A stretch of 64,000 nt of DNA from a virus, in IMG/VR virus record IMGVR_UViG_3300010376_000035, positions 2,543 through 66,542 of that record. One strand, 5' to 3'. Made by a program: the position numbers and the translations under genes. Shown piece after piece: positions 1-63,999 of the stretch. The number at the start of each line of letters is the position of its first letter. The stretch's first letter is position 1. The notes under the pieces are model-generated. The model worked only from the letters and a program-made list of their open reading frames with translations. It was not told where the DNA came from and did no database searches.

Positions 1-1
1 G

Positions 2-421
2 GACATCTGGAAGAGAACCGATGCCGGCCAGGTGAGACTGGAAGCTCTGACCGACACGGCCGAGGGCCAGCAGCCGGTGCGGATCCTCGAGCTGTTGGGT
101 GCGCGCTGGCGCCAGTCCACCAACCAGACCACCTATGCGAACTGGCAGGGGTCGGCGCTCACGGGCGTATCCACGTACCTGGCGGGCGCGGATGCGATCG
201 TGTTCATCAACTTCCCCAACAAGAGACATACAAAGCTCGATCCGGAGTGGCACAACATCAACCTCTGGGCCGGCGAGTACGTTGCCAAAACGGCATACGA
301 CCCCAACGGACTCATCATGGCCGGGACCGGGTACAACGCCATTCTGGGCGTGGGCCTTCCGCCCGATCCGGCCGGCGTGAGCCGCGCGCGTATCGCGGTC
401 GCGGTTCCGCAGACCACCTGA
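2..421 (+). CDS. Major capsid protein, C-terminal part (N4-gp56-like family), 5'-truncated by window edge
   Basis: With the mirror extension it reads YNGSIHPFFVGDL...ELLGARWRQST...TYLAGADAI...YDPNGLIMAGTGYN, resembling N4-gp56-type capsid motifs (hIHP..hYDL; G.RF; DPL..R..hGWK). Followed by a terminator and a tail-gene cluster. Confidence 0.7.
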   Translation, partial: DIWKRTDAGQVRLEALTDTAEGQQPVRILELLGARWRQSTNQTTYANWQGSALTGVSTYLAGADAIVFINFPNKRHTKLDPEWHNINLWAGEYVAKTAYDPNGLIMAGTGYNAILGVGLPPDPAGVSRARIAVAVPQTT

Positions 422-428
422 TTCTTTG

Positions 429-472
429 GGAAGGGGGTTTTCCGCCGATTATTATTCCCCCTTCCATTTTTT
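429..472 (+). terminator. Intrinsic terminator after capsid gene
   Basis: GGAAGGGGG (429-437) ... CCCCCTTCC (457-465) followed by ATTTTTT. Confidence 0.6.
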
Positions 473-502
473 CCAAACTAAAAAAACTTAGTTTGCGAGG
501 GG

Positions 503-1105
503 ATGATGCCCAAGCTGGAAGAAGTACAAGCCAAACTTGCCCAGGTGCAACTCGAGCAGGCCGAGATGCAGCTCGAGCAGACGCGCGAATCCGTGGAGGC
601 CTGGAAGAACCAGAAAGAAGAACTGTCGCGGCGCAACGCGCAACGCCAGAAGCAACTGAAGATGGACATCAACGAGCGCGCCAGCCAGGCCAAAGGCTGC
701 ACCCATCGCCAGGGCGGGAGTTTCGGCAATCCCACCGGCGGCAAGGGTCCGAGCGCACTGACCACCGTGATTCTTCCCGACGAGCGGGTATTGATCATGT
801 GTTCGATCTGTCCCATGCGCGTCTTTTCGCCTTTTCCCGGCAATGGCGCCCGCCGGCAGCGCCGCGGCGAGAGCAAGGAGGCGGCCGAGGCGCGCGTGGC
901 CAGATACCAGCAGGAGGTTGCCGAGTTTGAGGCGCTGTCTGCGGAGGCGCGCGACAAGCTGACCGAGGAAGCCGCGCAGCCCATGCATTGCGGCAAGACG
1001 TTTCGCTTTCTGGACGGGGACGGGAATCAGGTGCAGATGCCGGCACCGTGCGATTCCTACGCGCAGGGCCTGGACAATCGCAAAGGAATTCGGCTGGGGA
1101 TCTAG
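503..1105 (+). CDS. Hypothetical phage protein, coiled-coil with Cys/His motifs (200 aa)
   Basis: ORF with GGGA upstream; heptad-rich N-terminus, CTH and CSIC motifs. Confidence 0.7.
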   Translation: MMPKLEEVQAKLAQVQLEQAEMQLEQTRESVEAWKNQKEELSRRNAQRQKQLKMDINERASQAKGCTHRQGGSFGNPTGGKGPSALTTVILPDERVLIMCSICPMRVFSPFPGNGARRQRRGESKEAAEARVARYQQEVAEFEALSAEARDKLTEEAAQPMHCGKTFRFLDGDGNQVQMPAPCDSYAQGLDNRKGIRLGI

Positions 1106-1252
1106 CCGAAACAAGCGGCCCTCGCTGGAACCTTCCAGTGCTGGCGGCCAGCGAGGCCCGGCTGGGAATTGTCCCCCCCATGCCGGGCTTCGTTGTTGTG
1201 GGGGCAGCCGACCAAGGTTGATCCCCACCGAATGGAAAGGAGTGTAGCAGAG

Positions 1253-1390
1253 ATGCCGCTCGTAAAAGGAAAGAGCAAAGGAGCAGTCTCGCAGAACATC
1301 AAGACGGAGATGGCCGCAGGCAAGCCCAGAAAGCAGGCGATAGCGATCGCCATGAGCAAGGCCGGCAAAGCGAAGAACAAGAAGGGGTAG
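1253..1390 (+). CDS. Small basic phage protein (45 aa, [38 protein letters not shown])
   Basis: AAGGAG upstream of ATG 1253. Resembles a widespread small phage peptide type (MPLKKG.S...hS.NI...h..G.P.KQAhAIA). Confidence 0.7.
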
Positions 1391-1393
1391 CGC

Positions 1394-2386
1394 ATGGCGG
1401 TCAGTACCAAGACGCTCCAGGCTGTCTATAACGTGATTGCCGCGCAGGGAATTCCAGACCCGCGGGCGCAGGGCGGCGGCTACGGCGACGACCTGGCGCT
1501 GGACCTGGCCACGCGCGTCATGGCGGACCTGATCACCGAGCGCTTCAACTGGAAATTCAACCGCGCGGTTGCGTGGCCGGTTTACACCAACAGCTGGCAG
1601 CAGGACTATCCGCAGCCGGCGCAGGCCGGCGGCCTGATCGAATGGGGCGAGGATTGCGACATCCTCGATGTCAACAACACCACCATTCCCAAGCCGCTCA
1701 ATTGGGACGGCAGCATCACCTGGGTTCGCCAGCTCACGCGCACATCGATTGCCCGCTGGCGGCCGACGCGCATTTGCTGGATGTACAACGCGGAAATGAG
1801 CTGGGGCACCTGGCCGGGCGCGCTTGTCACGATCTACCCTCTCCTGGGGCCGACCGCGCCGGCCGGGCAGAATCCCTTACTAAACTTTATAGATTCCAAT
1901 GGCAATTACCTGATCCTCTCGACTTTTGGACGCACAGGCCTGACTGCGCCGGCCGCGGCCGCGGCGGCACCTGAAGGGACCACCGTGCCGGATGGCTCGT
2001 GCGTGTGGTCTGTGGTCAGCGGGACGAGCCAGGGATTCCGCGTCGATTTTTTGCCCAACGGCGCGGGCCCCACTTTTCAGCTCACGGCCAGCTATCAGCT
2101 GACCCCGCCGATCTTCACCACCTTCCAGCAGCTTTTGACGCCGATCCCCGACAGTTTCGCGCGCCATTTTCAGACCGGCCTGGAGTGGGCCTGCAAGATG
2201 GCGTCGACCAACCCCGCGGTCAAAAAGGAAGGGCTGGAGAACTACCCGCTCTGGCTGAAAGCCATGGGCACCATGATTCAGCAGGGCGGCAAGGAACCCA
2301 ATGCTTATCGCCTGATCCCCGAAACGAGCGTGGTCGAAAGCCGCTGGGGATGGAAGGGTCCGCATACCGCGGACATGCCGGTGTAA
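1394..2386 (+). CDS. Putative head-tail adaptor / tail tubular A-like protein, paralog 1 (330 aa)
   Basis: Position after the capsid gene; W.FNR...DY and Y.....P.....IPD motifs typical of podovirus adaptor-like proteins. Confidence 0.5.
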   Translation: MAVSTKTLQAVYNVIAAQGIPDPRAQGGGYGDDLALDLATRVMADLITERFNWKFNRAVAWPVYTNSWQQDYPQPAQAGGLIEWGEDCDILDVNNTTIPKPLNWDGSITWVRQLTRTSIARWRPTRICWMYNAEMSWGTWPGALVTIYPLLGPTAPAGQNPLLNFIDSNGNYLILSTFGRTGLTAPAAAAAAPEGTTVPDGSCVWSVVSGTSQGFRVDFLPNGAGPTFQLTASYQLTPPIFTTFQQLLTPIPDSFARHFQTGLEWACKMASTNPAVKKEGLENYPLWLKAMGTMIQQGGKEPNAYRLIPETSVVESRWGWKGPHTADMPV

Positions 2387-2389
2387 GCC

Positions 2390-3097
2390 ATGGCGATGAG
2401 TTTTACAGTGCAGGATGGCATCACGTTCACGCGCGCTTATATCAAGCAGCAGTCGCTCTACGTGAACAACCAGCAGCCTGCGCTGGGGGCGGCGCAGATC
2501 GTTTTGAACGTGGTATTGGGGCCGCCGTTCTCGTGGCGCGCGAACCGCACCACCACCGTAATCAGCATCTCGACTGCGGGCGGCACCGACTATCAGGTGA
2601 ACGTGCCTACGTTCGGGCGCCTGGATACGCAATGGCTGGTAGACGGCAACGGGAAGATCCATCAGCTGGGCGGCGAGATCACGCTGCCGAAGATCGGCAC
2701 CTCGAAACTGCCTACCAAGATTTGCCCGCAGTACGACGACAATGCCGGCAACATCACGTTTCGGTTCGATTCCGTCCCCGACCAGGCCTACAGCGCATAT
2801 CTGGACTATCAACAGAAGGCGCCGCTTGTGACCGGCGCCGCGCAGCCGCTGGGCACCATCTCGGATGAGAACGCGGACCTGTTTTTCGAGGGCATGCTTA
2901 CCTGGGCTTCGCTGCTGGTCAACGATGCGCGCTTTCCCATCTTTGAAAGACAGTTCGTGGCGCACTTATTGTCCCGCCAGGATGGATTGAGCGAACAGGC
3001 AAAAATCATTTTCATGGGCCAGTGGAACGAGTTTATCCGCACCGCGCAGCGCGCCCAGTCCATAACGCAAGGGGCCGCAAGCGGGCGCATGCAATGA
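2390..3097 (+). CDS. Putative head-tail adaptor / tail tubular A-like protein, paralog 2 (235 aa)
   Basis: Shares the motif layout of the upstream gene (FSWRANR..TDYQV; PDQAY..YLDYQQKAP..ISDE..LFFEG..W). Confidence 0.5.
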   Translation: MAMSFTVQDGITFTRAYIKQQSLYVNNQQPALGAAQIVLNVVLGPPFSWRANRTTTVISISTAGGTDYQVNVPTFGRLDTQWLVDGNGKIHQLGGEITLPKIGTSKLPTKICPQYDDNAGNITFRFDSVPDQAYSAYLDYQQKAPLVTGAAQPLGTISDENADLFFEGMLTWASLLVNDARFPIFERQFVAHLLSRQDGLSEQAKIIFMGQWNEFIRTAQRAQSITQGAASGRMQ

Positions 3098-3126
3098 TGT
3101 TAAGGTGATGTCACGCTAGGAGAACC

Positions 3127-6100
3127 ATGCCGAGTCCGTTAGCCCAAGCCGGCGCGACCGTAGAACCGAGCGAGTACGTGGCCCTGGCGATGGACGAGCA
3201 GTTCACGGGCATGTGGACCCAGCGCAGCCCGCTGCGCGATGCGGATGTTCCTTATCTCTATAGAAAGTTTTATTCCGCCTCGCGCTTTGATTCGATGATC
3301 GACGGGATCAACCGCGAGATCAGCGCGCGGCTCACCGATATACGCCGGCCAGGCTCGAGCGTCTACAACAGCCAGGTCCTTCCGCCCATCAACCGTTTTT
3401 ATCCATTCCGCCAATTCGGCGCGAATGGGGAGAATATTCGCGTCATTGCCGACTGCCAAGGCTTCGCCAATCAGCTGCAAAATCCGAACTTCGCCAACGG
3501 TTCCGGCGGGTGGAACTATGAGCCTGGATGGTCTTATACCTATGCTGGCCTGCCTGTACCACCTGGGGTGGGGTATTGTGCGATGTTTGTGGGTCCGGGT
3601 TCGGGCGCAGTTGTAAATCTTCAGCATATCCCCTGCACCACCGGAACGGTGATTGCCGCCAGTTGCTGGGGGCTGGGGGAACATGGGGCAAGCGGCACGG
3701 CAGTGTTGCGCATCAATTTTTACGATGCAAGCAATACTTATCTGGGCAGCAATCAAAGTTCTGCCGTACCGAATAACTACGCCTGGACACAGGTTGGTAT
3801 CAGCGCCGCCGCGAGTTTTTTTACGAACGCTGCATACGCAACCGTCGATTTTATCGTTGAAAGTTCGACCTCAAGCACAGGGCGTTGGTTCGCCTGGGGA
3901 TTCACGGGCAGTCCCGCGCCCGGCGCCGGCACGGTGCGCGATGTCACCGGGCCGAACACCAATCAGATTCTCTGGACGAAGGATCCTGCGGCCGGCAAGA
4001 CCACATTTCTGGGCGTGGGGAACGTTCTCTATGCCGGCGATGGAGTCCAGACGCATCAGATGGTGACGAGCGCGGAGGGCTGGACCGCGAACAAACAGTG
4101 GACGCCAGGCGATTACATTATCGATCCCAACGGGAACATCCAGATGTCCATCGGTTCGCAGACCGGGACCATCGCTTCCATCACGGTGCAGAGTAACGTC
4201 TGCACGGTATTTCTCGCACCCGGCGCGGGCATCCAGATCGCGCCCGGTGTTCAGCTCACCTTCAGCGGGCTTACCACTCTGCCGGCGCTCAATGGCACAA
4301 CCCAGACCATCCCCGCCATTGGCGGCAGCCTGCAATTTTTCTTCGCCTTCACTCATGCCAATCTGGCTCTTAGTTCCGAGACGGGGACCGTCACCACCGG
4401 GAGCGGAGTCAACAGCAATTCTCCACCGACATGGCAGACGGGGATCGGCGCAATCACTGTGGACGGGGGACAACAGTGGGAATGCCGCGGCGGCGCGGTG
4501 CAGAGCATGGGCGGGGCCGGGCCGACGACTGCGCCCACCGTGGTTCAGACAGCCGCCGCTGCGCTTTTTAACAACTGGGCGCCCAATACGTGGTATGCGC
4601 CATCTTTCGTGATTTACGGCGCGGGGCAGTTGCAGCTGCTCATCGGCCCGTCCGCACCGATACAAACAGGCTCCAGCGCTCCATCGTGGAGTACCACTCC
4701 AGGGGGCATCACCACCGAGACGACAGGCACCGGCTCAAATGCGCAATGGAAATGCATGGGATCGGGAAACTGGGTCGGGGGCGCGACTCATGCCGTGGGC
4801 GACTTCGTTGTGGTGAGCTACAACTATGCCACGCCCAGCGGCCCCAGTCCGCTGGTCACATCGCTTTTCAAATGCACTGCGGGAGGAGTCAGCAGCAACA
4901 TAACGCCGAACTGGACCAACGGTTTGGGGACGATCACGAAGGAACCGACCGGATCGCCGGTAACGTGGGTGAACCAAGGAGATAGCCCGCCGGGCTGGCC
5001 GGGATCGAACCAGCTGCTTTCGCTGGATACGACCATTCTGGATTCAAGCGGAAACCTTGAAGCCATTCAGAAAATCGGCAAATCCAGCGCGTCTGCGATT
5101 GTCTGGAATACGAATAAAGGCGGGCTCACGGGCGACAACACGGCCACCTGGCTGAACAACGGTCCCTATTCGGCGGGAAACACGACCGCATGGTACTGGG
5201 CCTATTCCGGCCTGAACTCGATCACCGGGGAGATCACCAATCCTTCTCCGCTCTCGCAGCCGGTAGTTCTCGCGCCCAACATGCACCCGGTGATTCAGGG
5301 GTCGGGGATGCCCAATCCGCCCTACGATTCCATCGTCCTGTGGCGCACCGCGGCCGGCGGCTCGACGCTTTACTACGTCGATCAGTTTCCCAATCCCGGC
5401 ACCGGGCAAACGTGGATCTATACCGACACCACGCCCGACAGCGCTCTTAATACCGCGATGGCCGCGCCCGGTTCGGCCAACACTTCATCGCTGGCCACGC
5501 CCCCACCCTCGACGGCCGTGGCGCCCGAGTACCACTGCGGCCGGATTTTTATGATCGACGGATCCGATGTGATCTACAGCGGAGGACCGGATACGGTTGT
5601 AGGCAACGGCAACACTTCTTTCCCGCCGCTGAATTATTTCCAATTGCCCGAGCAGCCGACCCGGCTGAAATCCGTCACCATGCAGAACGGCGGGCTGATC
5701 GTGGCCTGCGTGGCGAACACTTACGTGATTCTGGGCGAGGGAACCTCGAACAATCCATTCCTGCCGCCCAAGATGTTCATGGAGGGCGTGGGCATCCTCT
5801 CCTATGACTGTTTTTGCATGCGGGGCTCGACCGTCTACGGATTCTCCAACCGATCTAAAGTTTTTAGTTTCGATCCCGGCAACGGGGAGATTGAAATCGG
5901 CTTTTCGATCGGGGACCAGTTCAAGCTCGTCACCACGGGCGGGACGACTGCGGCGCTTTATAATCCGGCGAATTCCTATGTCACCTGGCACGAGCAGAAC
6001 TCGCCCGATACGGGCCTCTATGTGGCCGATGGTACGGTGGGATGGTTCCGCTGGAGCCCGATTGCGCCGCCCGAGTCGGGCTCCCTGTGGAGCCCGCGCG

Positions 6101-6639
6101 CCGCGATCGTGGGCGGCACCAGCGCGGTGCAATCGGTGGAAGTTTCGCCGGGCACGTTCCAGCTGCTGATGGGGCCGCAAACGAGCGGGCCGATTCTCAT
6201 GCGCGACGATGCGGTGAGCGGCGACTGGACGGCCGGCGCCTATGCCGGCTATCCATCCTGGGATGTCAAGGGATCCATCGGATTGTGCGAAACCGGCGAA
6301 GTGGCCGAAATCGTCCATGTCGCAATCAAGAGTATGGCGGTAGGCGCACGGCCAATTGTAAGCCTGCTGCTCGATGAAATCGCGGCCGGCGTCACGGTCG
6401 AAGGACGCACTACCGCGTGGGATACCCTCTCGCTCGATGACGGGCACCACGAGGATCCTCCCAATCTGGAACCTTCGATCACCACCTACAGCGATCGTTA
6501 CCGGGCGTCATCGACGGCCGAGACGCCCAAGTGTGAACACTTTCAACTGAAAATCGACTATGGCAGCCAGCTGGTGGCCGACGAGCTGCTCAAGTTCGGA
6601 ATTTTCGGGGCTCACTTCAAAGAACGGAGACAACAGTAA
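3127..6639 (+). CDS. Large virion tail protein, nozzle / tail tubular B-like, with carbohydrate-binding-like inserts (1170 aa)
   Basis: Size, position between adaptor-like and ejection-like genes, beta-rich composition, an NPNF..G..GW CBM-like insert and repeated Trp modules. Confidence 0.6.
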   Translation: MPSPLAQAGATVEPSEYVALAMDEQFTGMWTQRSPLRDADVPYLYRKFYSASRFDSMIDGINREISARLTDIRRPGSSVYNSQVLPPINRFYPFRQFGANGENIRVIADCQGFANQLQNPNFANGSGGWNYEPGWSYTYAGLPVPPGVGYCAMFVGPGSGAVVNLQHIPCTTGTVIAASCWGLGEHGASGTAVLRINFYDASNTYLGSNQSSAVPNNYAWTQVGISAAASFFTNAAYATVDFIVESSTSSTGRWFAWGFTGSPAPGAGTVRDVTGPNTNQILWTKDPAAGKTTFLGVGNVLYAGDGVQTHQMVTSAEGWTANKQWTPGDYIIDPNGNIQMSIGSQTGTIASITVQSNVCTVFLAPGAGIQIAPGVQLTFSGLTTLPALNGTTQTIPAIGGSLQFFFAFTHANLALSSETGTVTTGSGVNSNSPPTWQTGIGAITVDGGQQWECRGGAVQSMGGAGPTTAPTVVQTAAAALFNNWAPNTWYAPSFVIYGAGQLQLLIGPSAPIQTGSSAPSWSTTPGGITTETTGTGSNAQWKCMGSGNWVGGATHAVGDFVVVSYNYATPSGPSPLVTSLFKCTAGGVSSNITPNWTNGLGTITKEPTGSPVTWVNQGDSPPGWPGSNQLLSLDTTILDSSGNLEAIQKIGKSSASAIVWNTNKGGLTGDNTATWLNNGPYSAGNTTAWYWAYSGLNSITGEITNPSPLSQPVVLAPNMHPVIQGSGMPNPPYDSIVLWRTAAGGSTLYYVDQFPNPGTGQTWIYTDTTPDSALNTAMAAPGSANTSSLATPPPSTAVAPEYHCGRIFMIDGSDVIYSGGPDTVVGNGNTSFPPLNYFQLPEQPTRLKSVTMQNGGLIVACVANTYVILGEGTSNNPFLPPKMFMEGVGILSYDCFCMRGSTVYGFSNRSKVFSFDPGNGEIEIGFSIGDQFKLVTTGGTTAALYNPANSYVTWHEQNSPDTGLYVADGTVGWFRWSPIAPPESGSLWSPRAAIVGGTSAVQSVEVSPGTFQLLMGPQTSGPILMRDDAVSGDWTAGAYAGYPSWDVKGSIGLCETGEVAEIVHVAIKSMAVGARPIVSLLLDEIAAGVTVEGRTTAWDTLSLDDGHHEDPPNLEPSITTYSDRYRASSTAETPKCEHFQLKIDYGSQLVADELLKFGIFGAHFKERRQQ

Positions 6640-6968
6640 TGCCACGGGGACAAAAACGATCCAGCGATGAAATACGGCTGCGAGTGCAATGCACGGCCGA
6701 CGAGAACCACGGAAAAATACTGTACTTCAAGCCGACCGACAATTTAGCCATGATCGAAGCCTTGCAGGCGCTGATCAGCGGCACATCATCGCTCTACAAA
6801 TTTCCGCCGGGGCCTGGTTCGCCTATCGGCCGCTGCGCGATCTGCCAGGCAAAGCTGGAATGCCGCATTGAGCGCATTGAACCGCGGGCGCCCGATGTGG
6901 GCGAAGCCTTGCGAAAGAGTCTTTCGGAGGAGGAGCAAAATGCCGAGCCTGGAAAGTCGATCCACTGA
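6639..6968 (+). CDS. Hypothetical protein (109 aa, CxxC)
   Basis: TAATG coupling to the upstream gene. Confidence 0.6.
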   Translation: MPRGQKRSSDEIRLRVQCTADENHGKILYFKPTDNLAMIEALQALISGTSSLYKFPPGPGSPIGRCAICQAKLECRIERIEPRAPDVGEALRKSLSEEEQNAEPGKSIH

Positions 6969-7179
6969 CATATCGGCTACTCATGTGCGCGCGGGGGGCG
7001 GGGTGGTGACGCCGGCCAGCCCGCCAAGCGCCCCGGCTATGCCCACGCCGCATCCGCCCTATATCGGGCGCCATCCGAGAATGATCAGTTCCCTGCCTTC
7101 GATCTTCTCCACGCCCGATGCGGCGCTGCGCCAGTTTTATGGGCGCAGCACCATTCCCACGGGGAGGGTTGCAATATGA
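6940..7179 (+). CDS. Hypothetical protein (79 aa)
   Basis: GGAGGAG ribosome-binding site before ATG 6940; ATGA overlap with the next gene. Confidence 0.55.
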   Translation: MPSLESRSTDISATHVRAGGGVVTPASPPSAPAMPTPHPPYIGRHPRMISSLPSIFSTPDAALRQFYGRSTIPTGRVAI

Positions 7180-7679
7180 GCGCCAGAGGCACATTCCGAT
7201 TTTCGGAGTTCACCCTGCGGCCGGCGGGCGCCATCGCCACCGATGCGCTTCTGGCTAAACAGTGGACCGAGGCGGATCCCTGGCACAACACGGTGCAGCC
7301 TTCGTTCTGGATCGAGCAGGGCCAGCATTGCGACAGCTACATCCTCTACGACAAAGACGGGCCGGTGTTTTTCTGGAAAGGCGTCCTGATCTCTCCCCGC
7401 TCGATGGAGATGCACATTCAGTTTCCGCCCAGGCCGGCCAATGCGCAGGAGCGCAGGCGGCTCCGCGGGCGCGTTGCTCTGGGCCTGATTGTGGGTCTGA
7501 AGTGGCTGGAGGGGATCCTCTTTGCAACCGGCGTCAAGGAGATTTATTTCGATTCTTTCAGCGACGATCTCATTGTCTTCTGCGTGAACCGGCTGGATTT
7601 CGTTCAGGACGGGCCGTTGCTCAGAAAACGACTCTCAGCCTCACGAGAATCCCAAAAACTTGTGGAAAGGCAAATGTAG
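7176..7679 (+). CDS. Hypothetical virion-module protein, possibly GNAT-like fold (167 aa)
   Basis: Occupies the slot between nozzle and ejection genes where podoviruses often encode an acetyltransferase-like protein. The fold is inference only. Confidence 0.55.
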   Translation: MSARGTFRFSEFTLRPAGAIATDALLAKQWTEADPWHNTVQPSFWIEQGQHCDSYILYDKDGPVFFWKGVLISPRSMEMHIQFPPRPANAQERRRLRGRVALGLIVGLKWLEGILFATGVKEIYFDSFSDDLIVFCVNRLDFVQDGPLLRKRLSASRESQKLVERQM

Positions 7680-7681
7680 CC

Positions 7682-8296
7682 ATGTGCGGTGCAACCGGAG
7701 AGCAAAATACGATCCAGGGCGAACAGATGGCCGCCTACCAGCAGGCGCGCGAGATGATGCAGGAAGAGTACGGCCATCAACAGGCGATCTATGGGCCGAT
7801 GGCCAACCAGCTGGGAAGCATCTTCGCGCTGGGTCCTTCGCAGGAAGGATTTGCGCCCGCCGAGAAAGAGGCATTCGAGACGCAGATCATCGAGGGGACC
7901 GGCCAGAACTATGCCAATGCGGCGCGCGCGGTGAACCAGCAGATCGCCGCGCAAGGCGGAATACCGGGGATGCGTTCGGGTGCCGCCGACCAGCTAAAAC
8001 TTAATACCGCGCTTAGTTCTGCGCAGGAAAAGACGCGCGAGGAATTGGGAGTCACCCAGGCCAACTACGCGCAGGGCCGCGCGAACTGGCAGCAGGCCGG
8101 CACCGGCCTCATGGACATCGCCGCGGGCATGAACCCGCTGGGCTACGAGCAGCAGGCGACCGGCGCGGGGAGCGCAGCCTCGACCACGGCCAATCAGATC
8201 GCGCAGGAGCAGAACAGTTGGATCAATGCAGCCATTGGCGCCGCAGGAACTATCGGGGGAATGGCTACCGGGGCAGGAATCAACAAGTGGGGGTAA
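7682..8296 (+). CDS. Putative internal virion / DNA ejection (pilot) protein (204 aa)
   Basis: Start MCGATG at 7682; Gln/Ala/Gly-rich helical sequence with a hydrophobic glycine-rich C-terminus (AAIGAAGTIGGMATG). Confidence 0.6.
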   Translation: MCGATGEQNTIQGEQMAAYQQAREMMQEEYGHQQAIYGPMANQLGSIFALGPSQEGFAPAEKEAFETQIIEGTGQNYANAARAVNQQIAAQGGIPGMRSGAADQLKLNTALSSAQEKTREELGVTQANYAQGRANWQQAGTGLMDIAAGMNPLGYEQQATGAGSAASTTANQIAQEQNSWINAAIGAAGTIGGMATGAGINKWG

Positions 8297-8299
8297 GCA

Positions 8300-14692: not shown

Positions 14693-14732
14693 TTTTGCCT
14701 AAAACCAGGGGACAAGACTGGATTAGGCCGCA

Positions 14733-19659: not shown

Positions 19660-19673
19660 GGAGAAATTCCAAA

Positions 19674-50705: not shown

Positions 50706-50787
50706 CACAGGTGTCCCCTTTCTGAATGATGGTGCGGCCGCGGTTTCCTCCTCCCCCATGCGGCCATCAGTGCATGGAGCCATTTCA

Positions 50788-55593: not shown

Positions 55594-55596
55594 TGC

Positions 55597-56211
55597 TTAC
55601 CCCCACTTGTTGATTCCTGCCCCGGTAGCCATTCCCCCGATAGTTCCTGCGGCGCCAATGGCTGCATTGATCCAACTGTTCTGCTCCTGCGCGATCTGAT
55701 TGGCCGTGGTCGAGGCTGCGCTCCCCGCGCCGGTCGCCTGCTGCTCGTAGCCCAGCGGGTTCATGCCCGCGGCGATGTCCATGAGGCCGGTGCCGGCCTG
55801 CTGCCAGTTCGCGCGGCCCTGCGCGTAGTTGGCCTGGGTGACTCCCAATTCCTCGCGCGTCTTTTCCTGCGCAGAACTAAGCGCGGTATTAAGTTTTAGC
55901 TGGTCGGCGGCACCCGAACGCATCCCCGGTATTCCGCCTTGCGCGGCGATCTGCTGGTTCACCGCGCGCGCCGCATTGGCATAGTTCTGGCCGGTCCCCT
56001 CGATGATCTGCGTCTCGAATGCCTCTTTCTCGGCGGGCGCAAATCCTTCCTGCGAAGGACCCAGCGCGAAGATGCTTCCCAGCTGGTTGGCCATCGGCCC
56101 ATAGATCGCCTGTTGATGGCCGTACTCTTCCTGCATCATCTCGCGCGCCTGCTGGTAGGCGGCCATCTGTTCGCCCTGGATCGTATTTTGCTCTCCGGTT
56201 GCACCGCACAT
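55597..56211 (-). CDS. Mirror: pilot/ejection-like protein (204 aa)
   Basis: Identical to 7682..8296. Confidence 0.6.
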   Translation of the reverse strand: MCGATGEQNTIQGEQMAAYQQAREMMQEEYGHQQAIYGPMANQLGSIFALGPSQEGFAPAEKEAFETQIIEGTGQNYANAARAVNQQIAAQGGIPGMRSGAADQLKLNTALSSAQEKTREELGVTQANYAQGRANWQQAGTGLMDIAAGMNPLGYEQQATGAGSAASTTANQIAQEQNSWINAAIGAAGTIGGMATGAGINKWG

Positions 56212-56213
56212 GG

Positions 56214-56717
56214 CTACATTTGCCTTTCCACAAGTTTTTGGGATTCTCGTGAGGCTGAGAGTCGTTTTCTGAGCAACGGCCCGTCCTGAACGAAATCCAG
56301 CCGGTTCACGCAGAAGACAATGAGATCGTCGCTGAAAGAATCGAAATAAATCTCCTTGACGCCGGTTGCAAAGAGGATCCCCTCCAGCCACTTCAGACCC
56401 ACAATCAGGCCCAGAGCAACGCGCCCGCGGAGCCGCCTGCGCTCCTGCGCATTGGCCGGCCTGGGCGGAAACTGAATGTGCATCTCCATCGAGCGGGGAG
56501 AGATCAGGACGCCTTTCCAGAAAAACACCGGCCCGTCTTTGTCGTAGAGGATGTAGCTGTCGCAATGCTGGCCCTGCTCGATCCAGAACGAAGGCTGCAC
56601 CGTGTTGTGCCAGGGATCCGCCTCGGTCCACTGTTTAGCCAGAAGCGCATCGGTGGCGATGGCGCCCGCCGGCCGCAGGGTGAACTCCGAAAATCGGAAT
56701 GTGCCTCTGGCGCTCAT
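56214..56717 (-). CDS. Mirror: hypothetical virion-module protein (167 aa)
   Basis: Identical to 7176..7679. Confidence 0.55.
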   Translation of the reverse strand: MSARGTFRFSEFTLRPAGAIATDALLAKQWTEADPWHNTVQPSFWIEQGQHCDSYILYDKDGPVFFWKGVLISPRSMEMHIQFPPRPANAQERRRLRGRVALGLIVGLKWLEGILFATGVKEIYFDSFSDDLIVFCVNRLDFVQDGPLLRKRLSASRESQKLVERQM

Positions 56718-56953
56718 ATTGCAACCCTCCCCGTGGGAATGGTGCTGCGCCCATAAAACTGGCGCAGCGCCGCATCGGGCGTGGAGAAGATCGAAGGCAG
56801 GGAACTGATCATTCTCGGATGGCGCCCGATATAGGGCGGATGCGGCGTGGGCATAGCCGGGGCGCTTGGCGGGCTGGCCGGCGTCACCACCCCGCCCCCC
56901 GCGCGCACATGAGTAGCCGATATGTCAGTGGATCGACTTTCCAGGCTCGGCAT
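56714..56953 (-). CDS. Mirror: hypothetical protein (79 aa)
   Basis: Identical to 6940..7179. Confidence 0.55.
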   Translation of the reverse strand: MPSLESRSTDISATHVRAGGGVVTPASPPSAPAMPTPHPPYIGRHPRMISSLPSIFSTPDAALRQFYGRSTIPTGRVAI

Positions 56954-57254
56954 TTTGCTCCTCCTCCGAAAGACTCTTTCGCAAGGCTTCGCCCACATCG
57001 GGCGCCCGCGGTTCAATGCGCTCAATGCGGCATTCCAGCTTTGCCTGGCAGATCGCGCAGCGGCCGATAGGCGAACCAGGCCCCGGCGGAAATTTGTAGA
57101 GCGATGATGTGCCGCTGATCAGCGCCTGCAAGGCTTCGATCATGGCTAAATTGTCGGTCGGCTTGAAGTACAGTATTTTTCCGTGGTTCTCGTCGGCCGT
57201 GCATTGCACTCGCAGCCGTATTTCATCGCTGGATCGTTTTTGTCCCCGTGGCAT
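56925..57254 (-). CDS. Mirror: hypothetical protein (109 aa)
   Basis: Identical to 6639..6968. Confidence 0.6.
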   Translation of the reverse strand: MPRGQKRSSDEIRLRVQCTADENHGKILYFKPTDNLAMIEALQALISGTSSLYKFPPGPGSPIGRCAICQAKLECRIERIEPRAPDVGEALRKSLSEEEQNAEPGKSIH

Positions 57255-60200
57255 TACTGTTGTCTCCGTTCTTTGAAGTGAGCCCCGAAAATTCCGAACT
57301 TGAGCAGCTCGTCGGCCACCAGCTGGCTGCCATAGTCGATTTTCAGTTGAAAGTGTTCACACTTGGGCGTCTCGGCCGTCGATGACGCCCGGTAACGATC
57401 GCTGTAGGTGGTGATCGAAGGTTCCAGATTGGGAGGATCCTCGTGGTGCCCGTCATCGAGCGAGAGGGTATCCCACGCGGTAGTGCGTCCTTCGACCGTG
57501 ACGCCGGCCGCGATTTCATCGAGCAGCAGGCTTACAATTGGCCGTGCGCCTACCGCCATACTCTTGATTGCGACATGGACGATTTCGGCCACTTCGCCGG
57601 TTTCGCACAATCCGATGGATCCCTTGACATCCCAGGATGGATAGCCGGCATAGGCGCCGGCCGTCCAGTCGCCGCTCACCGCATCGTCGCGCATGAGAAT
57701 CGGCCCGCTCGTTTGCGGCCCCATCAGCAGCTGGAACGTGCCCGGCGAAACTTCCACCGATTGCACCGCGCTGGTGCCGCCCACGATCGCGGCGCGCGGG
57801 CTCCACAGGGAGCCCGACTCGGGCGGCGCAATCGGGCTCCAGCGGAACCATCCCACCGTACCATCGGCCACATAGAGGCCCGTATCGGGCGAGTTCTGCT
57901 CGTGCCAGGTGACATAGGAATTCGCCGGATTATAAAGCGCCGCAGTCGTCCCGCCCGTGGTGACGAGCTTGAACTGGTCCCCGATCGAAAAGCCGATTTC
58001 AATCTCCCCGTTGCCGGGATCGAAACTAAAAACTTTAGATCGGTTGGAGAATCCGTAGACGGTCGAGCCCCGCATGCAAAAACAGTCATAGGAGAGGATG
58101 CCCACGCCCTCCATGAACATCTTGGGCGGCAGGAATGGATTGTTCGAGGTTCCCTCGCCCAGAATCACGTAAGTGTTCGCCACGCAGGCCACGATCAGCC
58201 CGCCGTTCTGCATGGTGACGGATTTCAGCCGGGTCGGCTGCTCGGGCAATTGGAAATAATTCAGCGGCGGGAAAGAAGTGTTGCCGTTGCCTACAACCGT
58301 ATCCGGTCCTCCGCTGTAGATCACATCGGATCCGTCGATCATAAAAATCCGGCCGCAGTGGTACTCGGGCGCCACGGCCGTCGAGGGTGGGGGCGTGGCC
58401 AGCGATGAAGTGTTGGCCGAACCGGGCGCGGCCATCGCGGTATTAAGAGCGCTGTCGGGCGTGGTGTCGGTATAGATCCACGTTTGCCCGGTGCCGGGAT
58501 TGGGAAACTGATCGACGTAGTAAAGCGTCGAGCCGCCGGCCGCGGTGCGCCACAGGACGATGGAATCGTAGGGCGGATTGGGCATCCCCGACCCCTGAAT
58601 CACCGGGTGCATGTTGGGCGCGAGAACTACCGGCTGCGAGAGCGGAGAAGGATTGGTGATCTCCCCGGTGATCGAGTTCAGGCCGGAATAGGCCCAGTAC
58701 CATGCGGTCGTGTTTCCCGCCGAATAGGGACCGTTGTTCAGCCAGGTGGCCGTGTTGTCGCCCGTGAGCCCGCCTTTATTCGTATTCCAGACAATCGCAG
58801 ACGCGCTGGATTTGCCGATTTTCTGAATGGCTTCAAGGTTTCCGCTTGAATCCAGAATGGTCGTATCCAGCGAAAGCAGCTGGTTCGATCCCGGCCAGCC
58901 CGGCGGGCTATCTCCTTGGTTCACCCACGTTACCGGCGATCCGGTCGGTTCCTTCGTGATCGTCCCCAAACCGTTGGTCCAGTTCGGCGTTATGTTGCTG
59001 CTGACTCCTCCCGCAGTGCATTTGAAAAGCGATGTGACCAGCGGACTGGGGCCGCTGGGCGTGGCATAGTTGTAGCTCACCACAACGAAGTCGCCCACGG
59101 CATGAGTCGCGCCCCCGACCCAGTTTCCCGATCCCATGCATTTCCATTGCGCATTTGAGCCGGTGCCTGTCGTCTCGGTGGTGATGCCCCCTGGAGTGGT
59201 ACTCCACGATGGAGCGCTGGAGCCTGTTTGTATCGGTGCGGACGGGCCGATGAGCAGCTGCAACTGCCCCGCGCCGTAAATCACGAAAGATGGCGCATAC
59301 CACGTATTGGGCGCCCAGTTGTTAAAAAGCGCAGCGGCGGCTGTCTGAACCACGGTGGGCGCAGTCGTCGGCCCGGCCCCGCCCATGCTCTGCACCGCGC
59401 CGCCGCGGCATTCCCACTGTTGTCCCCCGTCCACAGTGATTGCGCCGATCCCCGTCTGCCATGTCGGTGGAGAATTGCTGTTGACTCCGCTCCCGGTGGT
59501 GACGGTCCCCGTCTCGGAACTAAGAGCCAGATTGGCATGAGTGAAGGCGAAGAAAAATTGCAGGCTGCCGCCAATGGCGGGGATGGTCTGGGTTGTGCCA
59601 TTGAGCGCCGGCAGAGTGGTAAGCCCGCTGAAGGTGAGCTGAACACCGGGCGCGATCTGGATGCCCGCGCCGGGTGCGAGAAATACCGTGCAGACGTTAC
59701 TCTGCACCGTGATGGAAGCGATGGTCCCGGTCTGCGAACCGATGGACATCTGGATGTTCCCGTTGGGATCGATAATGTAATCGCCTGGCGTCCACTGTTT
59801 GTTCGCGGTCCAGCCCTCCGCGCTCGTCACCATCTGATGCGTCTGGACTCCATCGCCGGCATAGAGAACGTTCCCCACGCCCAGAAATGTGGTCTTGCCG
59901 GCCGCAGGATCCTTCGTCCAGAGAATCTGATTGGTGTTCGGCCCGGTGACATCGCGCACCGTGCCGGCGCCGGGCGCGGGACTGCCCGTGAATCCCCAGG
60001 CGAACCAACGCCCTGTGCTTGAGGTCGAACTTTCAACGATAAAATCGACGGTTGCGTATGCAGCGTTCGTAAAAAAACTCGCGGCGGCGCTGATACCAAC
60101 CTGTGTCCAGGCGTAGTTATTCGGTACGGCAGAACTTTGATTGCTGCCCAGATAAGTATTGCTTGCATCGTAAAAATTGATGCGCAACACTGCCGTGCCG

Positions 60201-60766
60201 CTTGCCCCATGTTCCCCCAGCCCCCAGCAACTGGCGGCAATCACCGTTCCGGTGGTGCAGGGGATATGCTGAAGATTTACAACTGCGCCCGAACCCGGAC
60301 CCACAAACATCGCACAATACCCCACCCCAGGTGGTACAGGCAGGCCAGCATAGGTATAAGACCATCCAGGCTCATAGTTCCACCCGCCGGAACCGTTGGC
60401 GAAGTTCGGATTTTGCAGCTGATTGGCGAAGCCTTGGCAGTCGGCAATGACGCGAATATTCTCCCCATTCGCGCCGAATTGGCGGAATGGATAAAAACGG
60501 TTGATGGGCGGAAGGACCTGGCTGTTGTAGACGCTCGAGCCTGGCCGGCGTATATCGGTGAGCCGCGCGCTGATCTCGCGGTTGATCCCGTCGATCATCG
60601 AATCAAAGCGCGAGGCGGAATAAAACTTTCTATAGAGATAAGGAACATCCGCATCGCGCAGCGGGCTGCGCTGGGTCCACATGCCCGTGAACTGCTCGTC
60701 CATCGCCAGGGCCACGTACTCGCTCGGTTCTACGGTCGCGCCGGCTTGGGCTAACGGACTCGGCAT
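57254..60766 (-). CDS. Mirror: nozzle-like tail protein (1170 aa)
   Basis: Identical to 3127..6639. Confidence 0.6.
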   Translation of the reverse strand: MPSPLAQAGATVEPSEYVALAMDEQFTGMWTQRSPLRDADVPYLYRKFYSASRFDSMIDGINREISARLTDIRRPGSSVYNSQVLPPINRFYPFRQFGANGENIRVIADCQGFANQLQNPNFANGSGGWNYEPGWSYTYAGLPVPPGVGYCAMFVGPGSGAVVNLQHIPCTTGTVIAASCWGLGEHGASGTAVLRINFYDASNTYLGSNQSSAVPNNYAWTQVGISAAASFFTNAAYATVDFIVESSTSSTGRWFAWGFTGSPAPGAGTVRDVTGPNTNQILWTKDPAAGKTTFLGVGNVLYAGDGVQTHQMVTSAEGWTANKQWTPGDYIIDPNGNIQMSIGSQTGTIASITVQSNVCTVFLAPGAGIQIAPGVQLTFSGLTTLPALNGTTQTIPAIGGSLQFFFAFTHANLALSSETGTVTTGSGVNSNSPPTWQTGIGAITVDGGQQWECRGGAVQSMGGAGPTTAPTVVQTAAAALFNNWAPNTWYAPSFVIYGAGQLQLLIGPSAPIQTGSSAPSWSTTPGGITTETTGTGSNAQWKCMGSGNWVGGATHAVGDFVVVSYNYATPSGPSPLVTSLFKCTAGGVSSNITPNWTNGLGTITKEPTGSPVTWVNQGDSPPGWPGSNQLLSLDTTILDSSGNLEAIQKIGKSSASAIVWNTNKGGLTGDNTATWLNNGPYSAGNTTAWYWAYSGLNSITGEITNPSPLSQPVVLAPNMHPVIQGSGMPNPPYDSIVLWRTAAGGSTLYYVDQFPNPGTGQTWIYTDTTPDSALNTAMAAPGSANTSSLATPPPSTAVAPEYHCGRIFMIDGSDVIYSGGPDTVVGNGNTSFPPLNYFQLPEQPTRLKSVTMQNGGLIVACVANTYVILGEGTSNNPFLPPKMFMEGVGILSYDCFCMRGSTVYGFSNRSKVFSFDPGNGEIEIGFSIGDQFKLVTTGGTTAALYNPANSYVTWHEQNSPDTGLYVADGTVGWFRWSPIAPPESGSLWSPRAAIVGGTSAVQSVEVSPGTFQLLMGPQTSGPILMRDDAVSGDWTAGAYAGYPSWDVKGSIGLCETGEVAEIVHVAIKSMAVGARPIVSLLLDEIAAGVTVEGRTTAWDTLSLDDGHHEDPPNLEPSITTYSDRYRASSTAETPKCEHFQLKIDYGSQLVADELLKFGIFGAHFKERRQQ

Positions 60767-60795
60767 GGTTCTCCTAGCGTGACATCACCTTAACA

Positions 60796-61503
60796 TCATT
60801 GCATGCGCCCGCTTGCGGCCCCTTGCGTTATGGACTGGGCGCGCTGCGCGGTGCGGATAAACTCGTTCCACTGGCCCATGAAAATGATTTTTGCCTGTTC
60901 GCTCAATCCATCCTGGCGGGACAATAAGTGCGCCACGAACTGTCTTTCAAAGATGGGAAAGCGCGCATCGTTGACCAGCAGCGAAGCCCAGGTAAGCATG
61001 CCCTCGAAAAACAGGTCCGCGTTCTCATCCGAGATGGTGCCCAGCGGCTGCGCGGCGCCGGTCACAAGCGGCGCCTTCTGTTGATAGTCCAGATATGCGC
61101 TGTAGGCCTGGTCGGGGACGGAATCGAACCGAAACGTGATGTTGCCGGCATTGTCGTCGTACTGCGGGCAAATCTTGGTAGGCAGTTTCGAGGTGCCGAT
61201 CTTCGGCAGCGTGATCTCGCCGCCCAGCTGATGGATCTTCCCGTTGCCGTCTACCAGCCATTGCGTATCCAGGCGCCCGAACGTAGGCACGTTCACCTGA
61301 TAGTCGGTGCCGCCCGCAGTCGAGATGCTGATTACGGTGGTGGTGCGGTTCGCGCGCCACGAGAACGGCGGCCCCAATACCACGTTCAAAACGATCTGCG
61401 CCGCCCCCAGCGCAGGCTGCTGGTTGTTCACGTAGAGCGACTGCTGCTTGATATAAGCGCGCGTGAACGTGATGCCATCCTGCACTGTAAAACTCATCGC
61501 CAT
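60796..61503 (-). CDS. Mirror: adaptor-like paralog 2
   Basis: Identical to 2390..3097. Confidence 0.5.
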   Translation of the reverse strand: MAMSFTVQDGITFTRAYIKQQSLYVNNQQPALGAAQIVLNVVLGPPFSWRANRTTTVISISTAGGTDYQVNVPTFGRLDTQWLVDGNGKIHQLGGEITLPKIGTSKLPTKICPQYDDNAGNITFRFDSVPDQAYSAYLDYQQKAPLVTGAAQPLGTISDENADLFFEGMLTWASLLVNDARFPIFERQFVAHLLSRQDGLSEQAKIIFMGQWNEFIRTAQRAQSITQGAASGRMQ

Positions 61504-61506
61504 GGC

Positions 61507-62499
61507 TTACACCGGCATGTCCGCGGTATGCGGACCCTTCCATCCCCAGCGGCTTTCGACCACGCTCGTTTCGGGGATCAGGCGATAAGCATTGGGTTCC
61601 TTGCCGCCCTGCTGAATCATGGTGCCCATGGCTTTCAGCCAGAGCGGGTAGTTCTCCAGCCCTTCCTTTTTGACCGCGGGGTTGGTCGACGCCATCTTGC
61701 AGGCCCACTCCAGGCCGGTCTGAAAATGGCGCGCGAAACTGTCGGGGATCGGCGTCAAAAGCTGCTGGAAGGTGGTGAAGATCGGCGGGGTCAGCTGATA
61801 GCTGGCCGTGAGCTGAAAAGTGGGGCCCGCGCCGTTGGGCAAAAAATCGACGCGGAATCCCTGGCTCGTCCCGCTGACCACAGACCACACGCACGAGCCA
61901 TCCGGCACGGTGGTCCCTTCAGGTGCCGCCGCGGCCGCGGCCGGCGCAGTCAGGCCTGTGCGTCCAAAAGTCGAGAGGATCAGGTAATTGCCATTGGAAT
62001 CTATAAAGTTTAGTAAGGGATTCTGCCCGGCCGGCGCGGTCGGCCCCAGGAGAGGGTAGATCGTGACAAGCGCGCCCGGCCAGGTGCCCCAGCTCATTTC
62101 CGCGTTGTACATCCAGCAAATGCGCGTCGGCCGCCAGCGGGCAATCGATGTGCGCGTGAGCTGGCGAACCCAGGTGATGCTGCCGTCCCAATTGAGCGGC
62201 TTGGGAATGGTGGTGTTGTTGACATCGAGGATGTCGCAATCCTCGCCCCATTCGATCAGGCCGCCGGCCTGCGCCGGCTGCGGATAGTCCTGCTGCCAGC
62301 TGTTGGTGTAAACCGGCCACGCAACCGCGCGGTTGAATTTCCAGTTGAAGCGCTCGGTGATCAGGTCCGCCATGACGCGCGTGGCCAGGTCCAGCGCCAG
62401 GTCGTCGCCGTAGCCGCCGCCCTGCGCCCGCGGGTCTGGAATTCCCTGCGCGGCAATCACGTTATAGACAGCCTGGAGCGTCTTGGTACTGACCGCCAT
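61507..62499 (-). CDS. Mirror: adaptor-like paralog 1
   Basis: Identical to 1394..2386. Confidence 0.5.
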   Translation of the reverse strand: MAVSTKTLQAVYNVIAAQGIPDPRAQGGGYGDDLALDLATRVMADLITERFNWKFNRAVAWPVYTNSWQQDYPQPAQAGGLIEWGEDCDILDVNNTTIPKPLNWDGSITWVRQLTRTSIARWRPTRICWMYNAEMSWGTWPGALVTIYPLLGPTAPAGQNPLLNFIDSNGNYLILSTFGRTGLTAPAAAAAAPEGTTVPDGSCVWSVVSGTSQGFRVDFLPNGAGPTFQLTASYQLTPPIFTTFQQLLTPIPDSFARHFQTGLEWACKMASTNPAVKKEGLENYPLWLKAMGTMIQQGGKEPNAYRLIPETSVVESRWGWKGPHTADMPV

Positions 62500-62502
62500 G
62501 CG

Positions 62503-62640
62503 CTACCCCTTCTTGTTCTTCGCTTTGCCGGCCTTGCTCATGGCGATCGCTATCGCCTGCTTTCTGGGCTTGCCTGCGGCCATCTCCGTCTTGATGTTCT
62601 GCGAGACTGCTCCTTTGCTCTTTCCTTTTACGAGCGGCAT
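62503..62640 (-). CDS. Mirror: small basic phage protein (45 aa)
   Basis: Identical to 1253..1390. Confidence 0.7.
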
Positions 62641-62787
62641 CTCTGCTACACTCCTTTCCATTCGGTGGGGATCAACCTTGGTCGGCTGCCCCCACAACAA
62701 CGAAGCCCGGCATGGGGGGGACAATTCCCAGCCGGGCCTCGCTGGCCGCCAGCACTGGAAGGTTCCAGCGAGGGCCGCTTGTTTCGG

Positions 62788-63390
62788 CTAGATCCCCAGC
62801 CGAATTCCTTTGCGATTGTCCAGGCCCTGCGCGTAGGAATCGCACGGTGCCGGCATCTGCACCTGATTCCCGTCCCCGTCCAGAAAGCGAAACGTCTTGC
62901 CGCAATGCATGGGCTGCGCGGCTTCCTCGGTCAGCTTGTCGCGCGCCTCCGCAGACAGCGCCTCAAACTCGGCAACCTCCTGCTGGTATCTGGCCACGCG
63001 CGCCTCGGCCGCCTCCTTGCTCTCGCCGCGGCGCTGCCGGCGGGCGCCATTGCCGGGAAAAGGCGAAAAGACGCGCATGGGACAGATCGAACACATGATC
63101 AATACCCGCTCGTCGGGAAGAATCACGGTGGTCAGTGCGCTCGGACCCTTGCCGCCGGTGGGATTGCCGAAACTCCCGCCCTGGCGATGGGTGCAGCCTT
63201 TGGCCTGGCTGGCGCGCTCGTTGATGTCCATCTTCAGTTGCTTCTGGCGTTGCGCGTTGCGCCGCGACAGTTCTTCTTTCTGGTTCTTCCAGGCCTCCAC
63301 GGATTCGCGCGTCTGCTCGAGCTGCATCTCGGCCTGCTCGAGTTGCACCTGGGCAAGTTTGGCTTGTACTTCTTCCAGCTTGGGCATCAT
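62788..63390 (-). CDS. Mirror: coiled-coil hypothetical protein (200 aa)
   Basis: Identical to 503..1105. Confidence 0.7.
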   Translation of the reverse strand: MMPKLEEVQAKLAQVQLEQAEMQLEQTRESVEAWKNQKEELSRRNAQRQKQLKMDINERASQAKGCTHRQGGSFGNPTGGKGPSALTTVILPDERVLIMCSICPMRVFSPFPGNGARRQRRGESKEAAEARVARYQQEVAEFEALSAEARDKLTEEAAQPMHCGKTFRFLDGDGNQVQMPAPCDSYAQGLDNRKGIRLGI

Positions 63391-63420
63391 CCCCTCGCAA
63401 ACTAAGTTTTTTTAGTTTGG

Positions 63421-63464
63421 AAAAAATGGAAGGGGGAATAATAATCGGCGGAAAACCCCCTTCC
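63421..63464 (-). terminator. Mirror: terminator after capsid gene
   Basis: Mirror of 429..472. Confidence 0.6.
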
Positions 63465-63471
63465 CAAAGAA

Positions 63472-63999
63472 TCAGGTGGTCTGCGGAACCGCGACCGCGA
63501 TACGCGCGCGGCTCACGCCGGCCGGATCGGGCGGAAGGCCCACGCCCAGAATGGCGTTGTACCCGGTCCCGGCCATGATGAGTCCGTTGGGGTCGTATGC
63601 CGTTTTGGCAACGTACTCGCCGGCCCAGAGGTTGATGTTGTGCCACTCCGGATCGAGCTTTGTATGTCTCTTGTTGGGGAAGTTGATGAACACGATCGCA
63701 TCCGCGCCCGCCAGGTACGTGGATACGCCCGTGAGCGCCGACCCCTGCCAGTTCGCATAGGTGGTCTGGTTGGTGGACTGGCGCCAGCGCGCACCCAACA
63801 GCTCGAGGATCCGCACCGGCTGCTGGCCCTCGGCCGTGTCGGTCAGAGCTTCCAGTCTCACCTGGCCGGCATCGGTTCTCTTCCAGATGTCCACTACTGA
63901 GTTGTTGGTCTGGTCAAGTGCTAAATCGCCAACAAAAAATGGATGTATAGAGCCGTTGTAGGCTCCCGATTTCATCGGCAGAACGGTCGCGCCCAGCAA
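63472..63999 (-). CDS. Mirror: major capsid protein C-terminal part (partial, 108 nt longer than the left copy)
   Basis: Mirror of 2..421 plus LGATVLPMKSGAYNGSIHPFFVGDLALDQTNNSVV. Confidence 0.7.
   Translation of the reverse strand: MLGATVLPMKSGAYNGSIHPFFVGDLALDQTNNSVVDIWKRTDAGQVRLEALTDTAEGQQPVRILELLGARWRQSTNQTTYANWQGSALTGVSTYLAGADAIVFINFPNKRHTKLDPEWHNINLWAGEYVAKTAYDPNGLIMAGTGYNAILGVGLPPDPAGVSRARIAVAVPQTT

Follow-up and report, generated by a model that had tools for sequence, protein, structure and literature searches.

The window analyzed here is a 64,000-nucleotide (nt) stretch of the IMG/VR viral record IMGVR_UViG_3300010376_000035 (contig positions 2543-66542), and it reads as a palindrome centred on positions 31946/31947. 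Across this axis 31,946 of 31,946 base pairs (bp) are complementary, with no mismatch, no spacer and no indel, which confirmed the exact mirror symmetry described in an earlier reading of the letters alone (hereafter the sequence-only reading). That reading had placed the symmetry at positions 1-63892; this holds within the window but not as a limit, since the palindrome spans the entire 68,976-bp contig, which is identical to its reverse complement, the axis standing at 34,488, exactly half, with an arm of 34,488 bp. Judged from a comparison of assemblies and relatives, the axis is the conserved right terminus of a linear, non-integrating phage-plasmid of ~42.7 kilobases (kb). The window comprises the following parts and terminal features.

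1..31946, plus strand: real arm, unique sequence; right three quarters of the ~42.7-kb linear phage-plasmid genome
30516..31586, minus strand: AAA_5 ATPase, CobS/MoxR-like, terminus-proximal (PF07728, phrog_249)
31587..31913: gene-free subterminal region with a G-rich block and direct repeats, iteron- or centromere-like
~31648-31677: inward promoter region of the early operon, within the subterminal region
31711-31741 and 31796-31826: 31-nt repeat, two direct copies
31742-31774: 11-nt repeat, three tandem copies
31914..31943, plus strand: outward sigma-70-like promoter or conserved terminal box; TTGACA (31914-31919), 18 nt, TG-c-TAAATT (31935-31943)
31946..31947: axis, right-hand genome terminus (hairpin apex or head-to-head junction centre); in relatives L015, L016 and L023 the contig ends or the fold lie 1-4 nt from the homologous position
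31947..64000: mirror copy, exact reverse complement of the arm; assembler fold-back (self-conjugate path)

Between the axis and the first gene, which encodes AAA_5 and is transcribed away from the tip, lie 360 gene-free bases. The guanine-cytosine (GC) content is 58.5% in the arm, 41.9% in the 360 nt next to the axis and 26.7% in the final 30. Coordinates, GC content and repeats bear out the tip anatomy of the sequence-only reading, namely a 360-bp gene-free, repeat-rich segment with an AT-rich tip and the nearest operon pointing away from it.

The contig as assembled

The second half of the palindrome is the assembler's representation of one 34.5-kb stretch, with no second gene set and no duplicated genome, as follows from the existence of an unfolded contig of the same DNA in ENA. 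The contig arm starts 2,542 nt before the window, the genome start lies another 8,231 nt upstream, and both outer contig ends fall inside a portal-like coding sequence and not at a telomere. Palindromic contigs are a known output of SPAdes and MEGAHIT where a dead end holds a k-mer whose (k-1) suffix is palindromic (PMC9528984).

The record is labelled 'inverted terminal repeats' in IMG/VR with a CheckV completeness of 70%, and both entries are misleading because of the contig doubling and a poor, distant reference. A complete-looking relative of 42,707 bp received a CheckV completeness of 44% and the topology 'linear'. The only isolate with any similarity to the large terminase subunit (TerL), at 21% identity, is the Tunturiibacter phage Tunturi_3. 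CheckV completeness was rejected as a guide to genome size, since it is anchored on this distant 97.6-kb phage. The record is therefore mislabelled as a 69-kb genome and should be described as a 34.5-kb fragment of a ~42.7-kb genome.

The terminus in other assemblies and in relatives

The same phage was recovered unfolded in an ENA contig that encodes the exact tip-proximal protein and measures 42,729 bp (8,231 + 34,488 + 10). It ends 370 nt upstream of the AAA_5 gene, about 10 nt past the axis. This overhang equals (21-1)/2, i.e., (k-1)/2 for k=21, and is expected if the same axis-crossing reads were present. Its left end, 8,231 nt to the left of the IMG contig start, lies no more than 1 nt from where a Logan contig begins. 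In the likely source run, a 17,555-bp Logan contig was free of mismatches up to position 31895 and stopped there, 51 nt short of the axis. This stop may reflect a branch and tip-clipping caused by co-occurring strains and not a depletion of reads at a closed end; contigs of co-occurring related strains were found at 90-99% identity and a depth of ~5. Runs X1 (depth 5.1) and X2 (depth 3.1) each contain a contig in which position 31786 is linked to 30937 through nine extra letters, AACGAAATT; it probably represents a co-occurring related strain or a rearranged variant. An exact search for the tip in IMG/VR gave no match.

Among homologues with at least 51% identity, the AAA_5 gene lay at the end of a contig or the centre of a mirror in 15/15 contexts listed (JGI, ENA, and Logan), was never joined to genes beyond the terminus, and the element was linear in all of them. 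In homologues with 55% identity or less, the gene was internal or differently oriented, so the terminal position of AAA_5 is clade-specific. The lengths of AAA_5-homologue contigs reached a plateau at 42.6-43.7 kb, and those of portal-family contigs at 38-43 kb. Searches with single proteins in IMG/VR and JGI metagenomes returned only distant, short and uninformative contigs, and no relatives of a 537-amino-acid (aa) protein were found in them.

Three relatives locate the terminus to within a few bases. L015 (73% identity, another sample) is the unfolded 42,707-bp JGI contig and ends 1 nt beyond the homologous axis; it begins A|TTTAATTTAGCA, and the phage in the window reads TTTAATTTAGCA from the axis. 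L016 (72% identity, a 43,545-bp JGI contig) ends 2 nt short of the homologous axis. L023 (SPAdes NODE_2, coverage 9.5) belongs to a 76%-identity relative from a further sample and is, with its 83,202 bp (2 x 41,601), a second independent perfect whole-contig palindrome, whose axis lies at the exact centre between mirrored AAA_5 genes. Its arm has the full genome length and both of its outer ends are at the left terminus. L016 and L023 carry the same terminal boxes.

No other assembly of the same or related DNA reads through the fold, all of them stopping at or before it, as examined in a test for a pure assembly artefact. One homologous base is where independent assemblies, and relatives that have diverged, stop or fold. 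The axis is thus a genuine conserved terminus, and the sequence-only claim that this is the terminus of a linear replicon was upheld: assemblies and relatives end or fold there, and nothing is joined beyond. The terminase lies 4-5 kb from the left end and only one linear arrangement was seen. Between the two ends of the complete relative, no shared repeat, direct or inverted, exceeds 10 nt, and direct terminal repeats or shared cos overhangs were rejected on this ground.

Terminal boxes and subterminal repeats

The terminal box of the window matches the sigma-70 promoter at 10/12 positions, has an extended -10 element, and its -10 ends 3 nt before the axis. Comparable outward boxes were found at the other termini, including L022, the left end of the same complete genome as L015.

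L015 right end: TTGACA, 17 nt, TAAATT; 10/12; -10 ends 4 nt from the contig end
L022 left end: TTGACA, 18 nt, TATACT; 11/12; -10 ends 6 nt from the contig end
L016 and L023 right ends: TTGACA, 14 nt, TGCTAAGCT; weaker -10; ends 5 nt from the L016 contig end and 7 nt from the L023 axis

In L022, the box is the sole promoter-like match in 800 nt. From the start of TTGACA to the last base, the five termini measure 33, 33, 34, 36, and 36 nt, and this spacing of 33-36 nt places the terminus where transcription is predicted to start. Such a promoter runs out at the last base and needs further DNA to be complete, be it the turn of a hairpin or the far side of a junction. The box at 31914..31943 is a candidate resolution or recognition site.

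A more distant contig of 47,429 bp (G004, AAA_5 51% identity) has an outward TTGACA-N15-TGCTAAGGT box at L150:451-479 (IMGVR_UViG_3300044946_000155), 21 nt from the far contig end. This is the end opposite the AAA_5 gene, and the AAA_5-side end has no such box. A scan of IMG/VR for the terminal motif recovered with pattern one only the known relative plus 21 chance matches in AT-rich genomes, and with pattern two no match.

Short tandem arrays are present 100-350 nt from the terminus in every close relative (L015:~130-190; L016:~100-190; L023, ~190-330 nt from its axis). Their sequence differs in each phage, with a repeat unit of 11 nt in the window and in L015 and a longer one in L023. These iteron- or centromere-like arrays may be an origin or a partition site.

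Two further relatives also have repeats at their contig ends. L012 (IMGVR_UViG_3300036845_000696, portal 68% identity), the more distant type of relative, has at its left contig end, positions 1-95, a 28-nt inverted repeat (1-28/68-95) with one mismatch, a 39-nt non-palindromic spacer and TTGACA in each arm. An imperfect terminal hairpin, a left/right junction and a binding site are all conceivable. Further in lie four 27-nt iteron-like repeats (439-618) and the gene of a RepA_C plasmid initiator (723-1697). Four 22-nt iterons (47-156) and a RepA_C gene stand at the contig end of L013, whose large terminase gene (L013:4229-6673) contains an intein (Hint and Intein_splicing) and encodes 814 aa compared to 548-564 aa in the others.

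Gene content and type of element

The remaining annotated features of the arm are given below from the terminus inward, with open reading frames (ORFs) of the virion module last.

29666..30490, minus strand: DUF7192 protein (phrog_1909), partner of AAA_5 in most relatives, absent in L023
28967..29635, minus strand: clamp-loader-like AAA+ ATPase (phrog_168)
28451..28978, plus strand: HNH endonuclease (phrog_144, E 5e-6)
27055..27312, minus strand: ribbon-helix-helix (RHH) DNA-binding protein, kept in all four phages sharing terminal boxes
24970..25879, minus strand: type Ib-like partition cassette with ParA ATPase (25193-25879) and a small RHH protein (24970-25224)
21364..22977, plus strand: phage SMC/SbcC(Rad50)-like AAA_23 ATPase (phrog_1499), conserved in relatives
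20497..21084, plus strand: HTH_3 repressor-like regulator
1..19495, plus strand: virion module, including a 1170-aa protein
15280-18918, plus strand: tailspike of 1212 aa with a K1-lyase C-terminal chaperone domain
8300-10264, plus strand: P22-type ejection-protein-like ORF of 654 aa (Atlas score 0.92, lead only)
L004:1785-2963: weak major-head-like ORF, starting before the window and ending at about window position 421

AAA_5 is the one protein always encoded beside this terminus, and its gene marks the right end in all close relatives. An N-terminal zinc-ribbon-like motif, CxxC...HxxC (residues 1-40; C12, H34, and C37), is invariant across 23 homologues. As the motif precedes the AAA+ domain, the protein may be a CobS/MoxR-like motor that carries a zinc-ribbon head for DNA binding. 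The ejection-protein-like ORF and the K1-lyase tailspike suggest a podovirus-like virion.

The SMC/SbcC-like ATPase, conserved in these phages, has no adjacent Mre11/SbcD-like nuclease gene. Hairpins are attacked by host SbcCD, which N15 TelN reportedly inhibits (PMC12624138), and with this background a role of the ATPase in protecting or processing the end is conceivable.

In the complete relative, an ORF for a RusA-like Holliday junction resolvase was assigned to phrog_34 (E 4e-9), with a sub-threshold Pfam RusA score of 15-16 bits, and adjoins an HNH endonuclease gene near the left end. In the phage of the window, the equivalent position is occupied by a 183-aa ORF that lies outside the IMG contig. 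The Pox_A22 resolvase gave no match.

For tyrosine recombinases (PF00589), no match at E<=1 came from the contig, from G003 (the complete relative of 42,707 bp), or from G001, G002, G004, and G005; the left 8.2 kb of the phage itself, outside the contig, was assessed as gene sizes only, without Pfam matches. Serine recombinases, DDE transposases and protein-primed DNA polymerase B (PF03175) were likewise not detected in the contig or related records, among them the complete 42.7-kb relative. The large unannotated ORFs showed no similarity to protelomerases or tyrosine recombinases, and PDB sequence searches with five unannotated proteins and TerL gave no match. A Mu-like transposable phage was rejected, there being no DDE transposase and no TG..CA ends. 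The presence of ParA and RHH genes and the absence of an integrase or transposase point to a non-integrating phage-plasmid.

Homologues were found in metagenome-assembled genomes (MAGs) named Terracidiphilus and Ca. Acidoferrum, and since these are acidobacterial, the host is probably a member of the Acidobacteriota. A scan of GTDB genomes yielded one truncated Ca. Acidoferrum MAG contig and unrelated Saccharibacteria AAA genes. A near-identity search of the phage collection revealed no DNA similarity to any deposited phage, and a search of one paper on Acidobacteriota viruses found no account of such phages (PMC11924767).

Nature of the end

By the assembly mechanism cited above, a palindromic contig implies reads that crossed the axis by at least 10 nt as a perfect complement (PMC9528984). 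In reads from a complex soil metagenome, only a covalently closed hairpin or a replicated head-to-head junction would give a fold with zero spacer: two copies of one rare phage should meet too seldom in soil DNA for intermolecular end-to-end ligation to matter, and the 3' end appears to have no self-complementary run that could prime a snap-back into this exact junction. Both considerations favour a hairpin or head-to-head junction formed in vivo, and on balance we lean towards one of these two forms, present in at least part of the population, as the source of the fold. They speak equally against a real end that is open or protein-blocked, at which a few chimeric or snap-back library molecules were expanded into a fold by SPAdes or MEGAHIT. 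Such an end is possible, if rather unlikely. It accords with whole-contig palindromes being a common assembler product at dead ends (PMC9528984), with L015 and L016 finishing 1-2 nt from the axis as open ends would, with the necessary rarity of crossing reads, with the lack of a protelomerase, and with an HNH gene that accompanies the terminase genes, as in cos-type packaging. It is countered by L023, in which another phage, sample and assembly show the zero-spacer fold at this terminus again. Moreover, a non-integrating plasmid-like element with bare ends would need another form of end protection, and on such an end there would be little use for an outward promoter that stops with the last base.

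Several observations weigh against a hairpin or head-to-head junction. L015 and L016 stop at the axis instead of continuing (k-1)/2 nt round it, and molecules with open ends probably also exist there. Folding was seen at right ends only, and the left ends are clean dead ends. None of the listed Logan records crosses position 31946, a search for the junction in public runs with three sampled words listed none, and the ENA contig keeps only 10 nt; axis-crossing reads are thus rare, the runs being represented in this comparison by Logan contigs. A protelomerase (PF16684, ResT/TelK) was not matched at E<=1 in the contig, G003, G001, G002, G004, or G005. The RusA-like gene was not found in the contig and was seen in the relative only.

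It is improbable that the true replicon or replicative form is an inverted dimer (left-right/right-left, ~85 kb) with a genuine duplex palindrome at its centre. In its favour, each arm of L023 spans a whole genome and the folded contig starts and finishes at the left terminus, short reads look the same for a duplex junction as for a hairpin, and the convergent promoters would be complete only in the dimer form. However, unfolded full-length contigs of 42.7-43.7 kb dominate, and if a stable duplex junction were present at full depth, every assembly would be expected to fold or overrun the axis, which L015 and L016 do not. Long perfect palindromes are also unstable in bacteria. Least credible, with hardly any probability left to it, is an internal palindrome of a circular or concatemeric genome at which the assembler turned round and the genome continues beyond. 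The AT-rich, repeat-rich region does resemble a replication origin; yet no assembly passes the axis in any of the 15 contexts, and the ends of the complete relative lack a common repeat. Furthermore, the ENA and Logan contigs agree within 1 nt on the left and are 61 nt apart on the right, so their left and right ends do not represent the halves of a single palindrome.

Proposed mechanism and significance

With a hairpin or head-to-head junction as the favoured form, the palindromic contig would have arisen when a few reads ran over the right terminus onto the complementary strand and the de Bruijn assembler wrote the arm and then its reverse complement. As no TelN/ResT-type protelomerase was found and a promoter-like box stands at both ends, a poxvirus-like route is proposed. 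Replication through the end would generate a palindromic junction with one copy of the box on either side in inverted orientation, and this junction could extrude as a cruciform. This would be cut by a junction resolvase (the RusA-like protein, known from the complete relative), perhaps with the HNH endonuclease or the terminase. Ligation after the cut would yield hairpins, and the cut alone the open ends of other assemblies.

A large, widespread family of ~40-43-kb Acidobacteriota phage-plasmids might form protelomerase-free hairpin-type ends by means of an outward box at each terminus and a RusA-type resolvase, and transcripts started at the box might turn the end and enter the early AAA_5 operon, a tentative proposal that we consider doubtful in its full extent. 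If the end is a hairpin or a resolved palindromic junction, no earlier bacterial virus family would have dealt with the problem of linear ends without a TelN/ResT protelomerase; the solution would resemble that of poxviruses, the hosts would belong to a soil phylum that ranks among the most abundant and least tractable, and a concrete conserved terminal element of 33-36 nt would be at hand. For fold-back contigs in general, a usable criterion for telling the informative ones from junk is whether assemblies made independently, and those of diverged relatives, break off at the axis or continue across it.

Comparison with known systems

The 'lonely inverted loops' of Rahman and Medvedev (2022, PMC9528984) are, like the contig studied here, self-reverse-complementary with the axis at the exact midpoint, and SPAdes and MEGAHIT are known to push through them. 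The difference from a pure assembler fold-back is that here the other assemblies stop at the fold and that the fold recurs, with several phages and samples involved.

The phages N15, PY54, phiKO2, and VP882, linear plasmid prophages with hairpin ends, a TelN-type protelomerase and a telRL site, are likewise tailed, non-integrating, equipped with partition genes and always recovered as linear elements. As in these, the terminus is palindromic when read through (a zero-spacer fold, also in L023) and the partition genes lie in the arm adjoining the telomere. The grouping with N15, PY54, and Borrelia protelomerase systems made in the sequence-only reading was, however, not sustained: neither a ResT/TelK domain nor a tyrosine recombinase was found in the arm or in the 42.7-kb relative, and the element thus lacks the defining trait of the N15 type. 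Further differences are that no circularly permuted (cos) arrangement was seen, that only one end was seen folded, and that the host is probably in the Acidobacteriota and not in the Gammaproteobacteria.

The protein-primed type of phi29, PRD1, and tectivirus plasmids is not matched, PF03175 and inverted terminal repeats being absent. For T7, Chung, Nardone, and Hinkle are said to have described in 1990 a hairpin packaging intermediate at the right end, linked to an outward promoter near that end. The likeness would lie in a hairpin at the right end of a podovirus-like phage together with such a promoter; T7 reportedly differs in having direct terminal repeats and no plasmid state, and no terminal repeat is present here.

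In poxviruses, the concatemer-resolution site consists of a conserved late promoter aimed at the AT-rich hairpin and is required in two inverted copies, and the junction is extruded as a cruciform and then cut by the A22 junction resolvase (PMC8956199). The likeness to the terminus described here lies in the AT-rich end, the promoter-like element aimed at it, which would stand in two inverted copies across a replicated junction, the lack of a protelomerase, and perhaps a junction resolvase (RusA-like), encoded here by the complete relative only. In contrast to poxviruses, the resolvase is of the RusA type and not of the RuvC/A22 type, with none in the contig; there are no long inverted terminal repeats, the palindrome is without flip-flop mismatches, and the element is a bacterial virus with terminase packaging. 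If closed, the terminus would be a new variant of hairpin-ended replicons.

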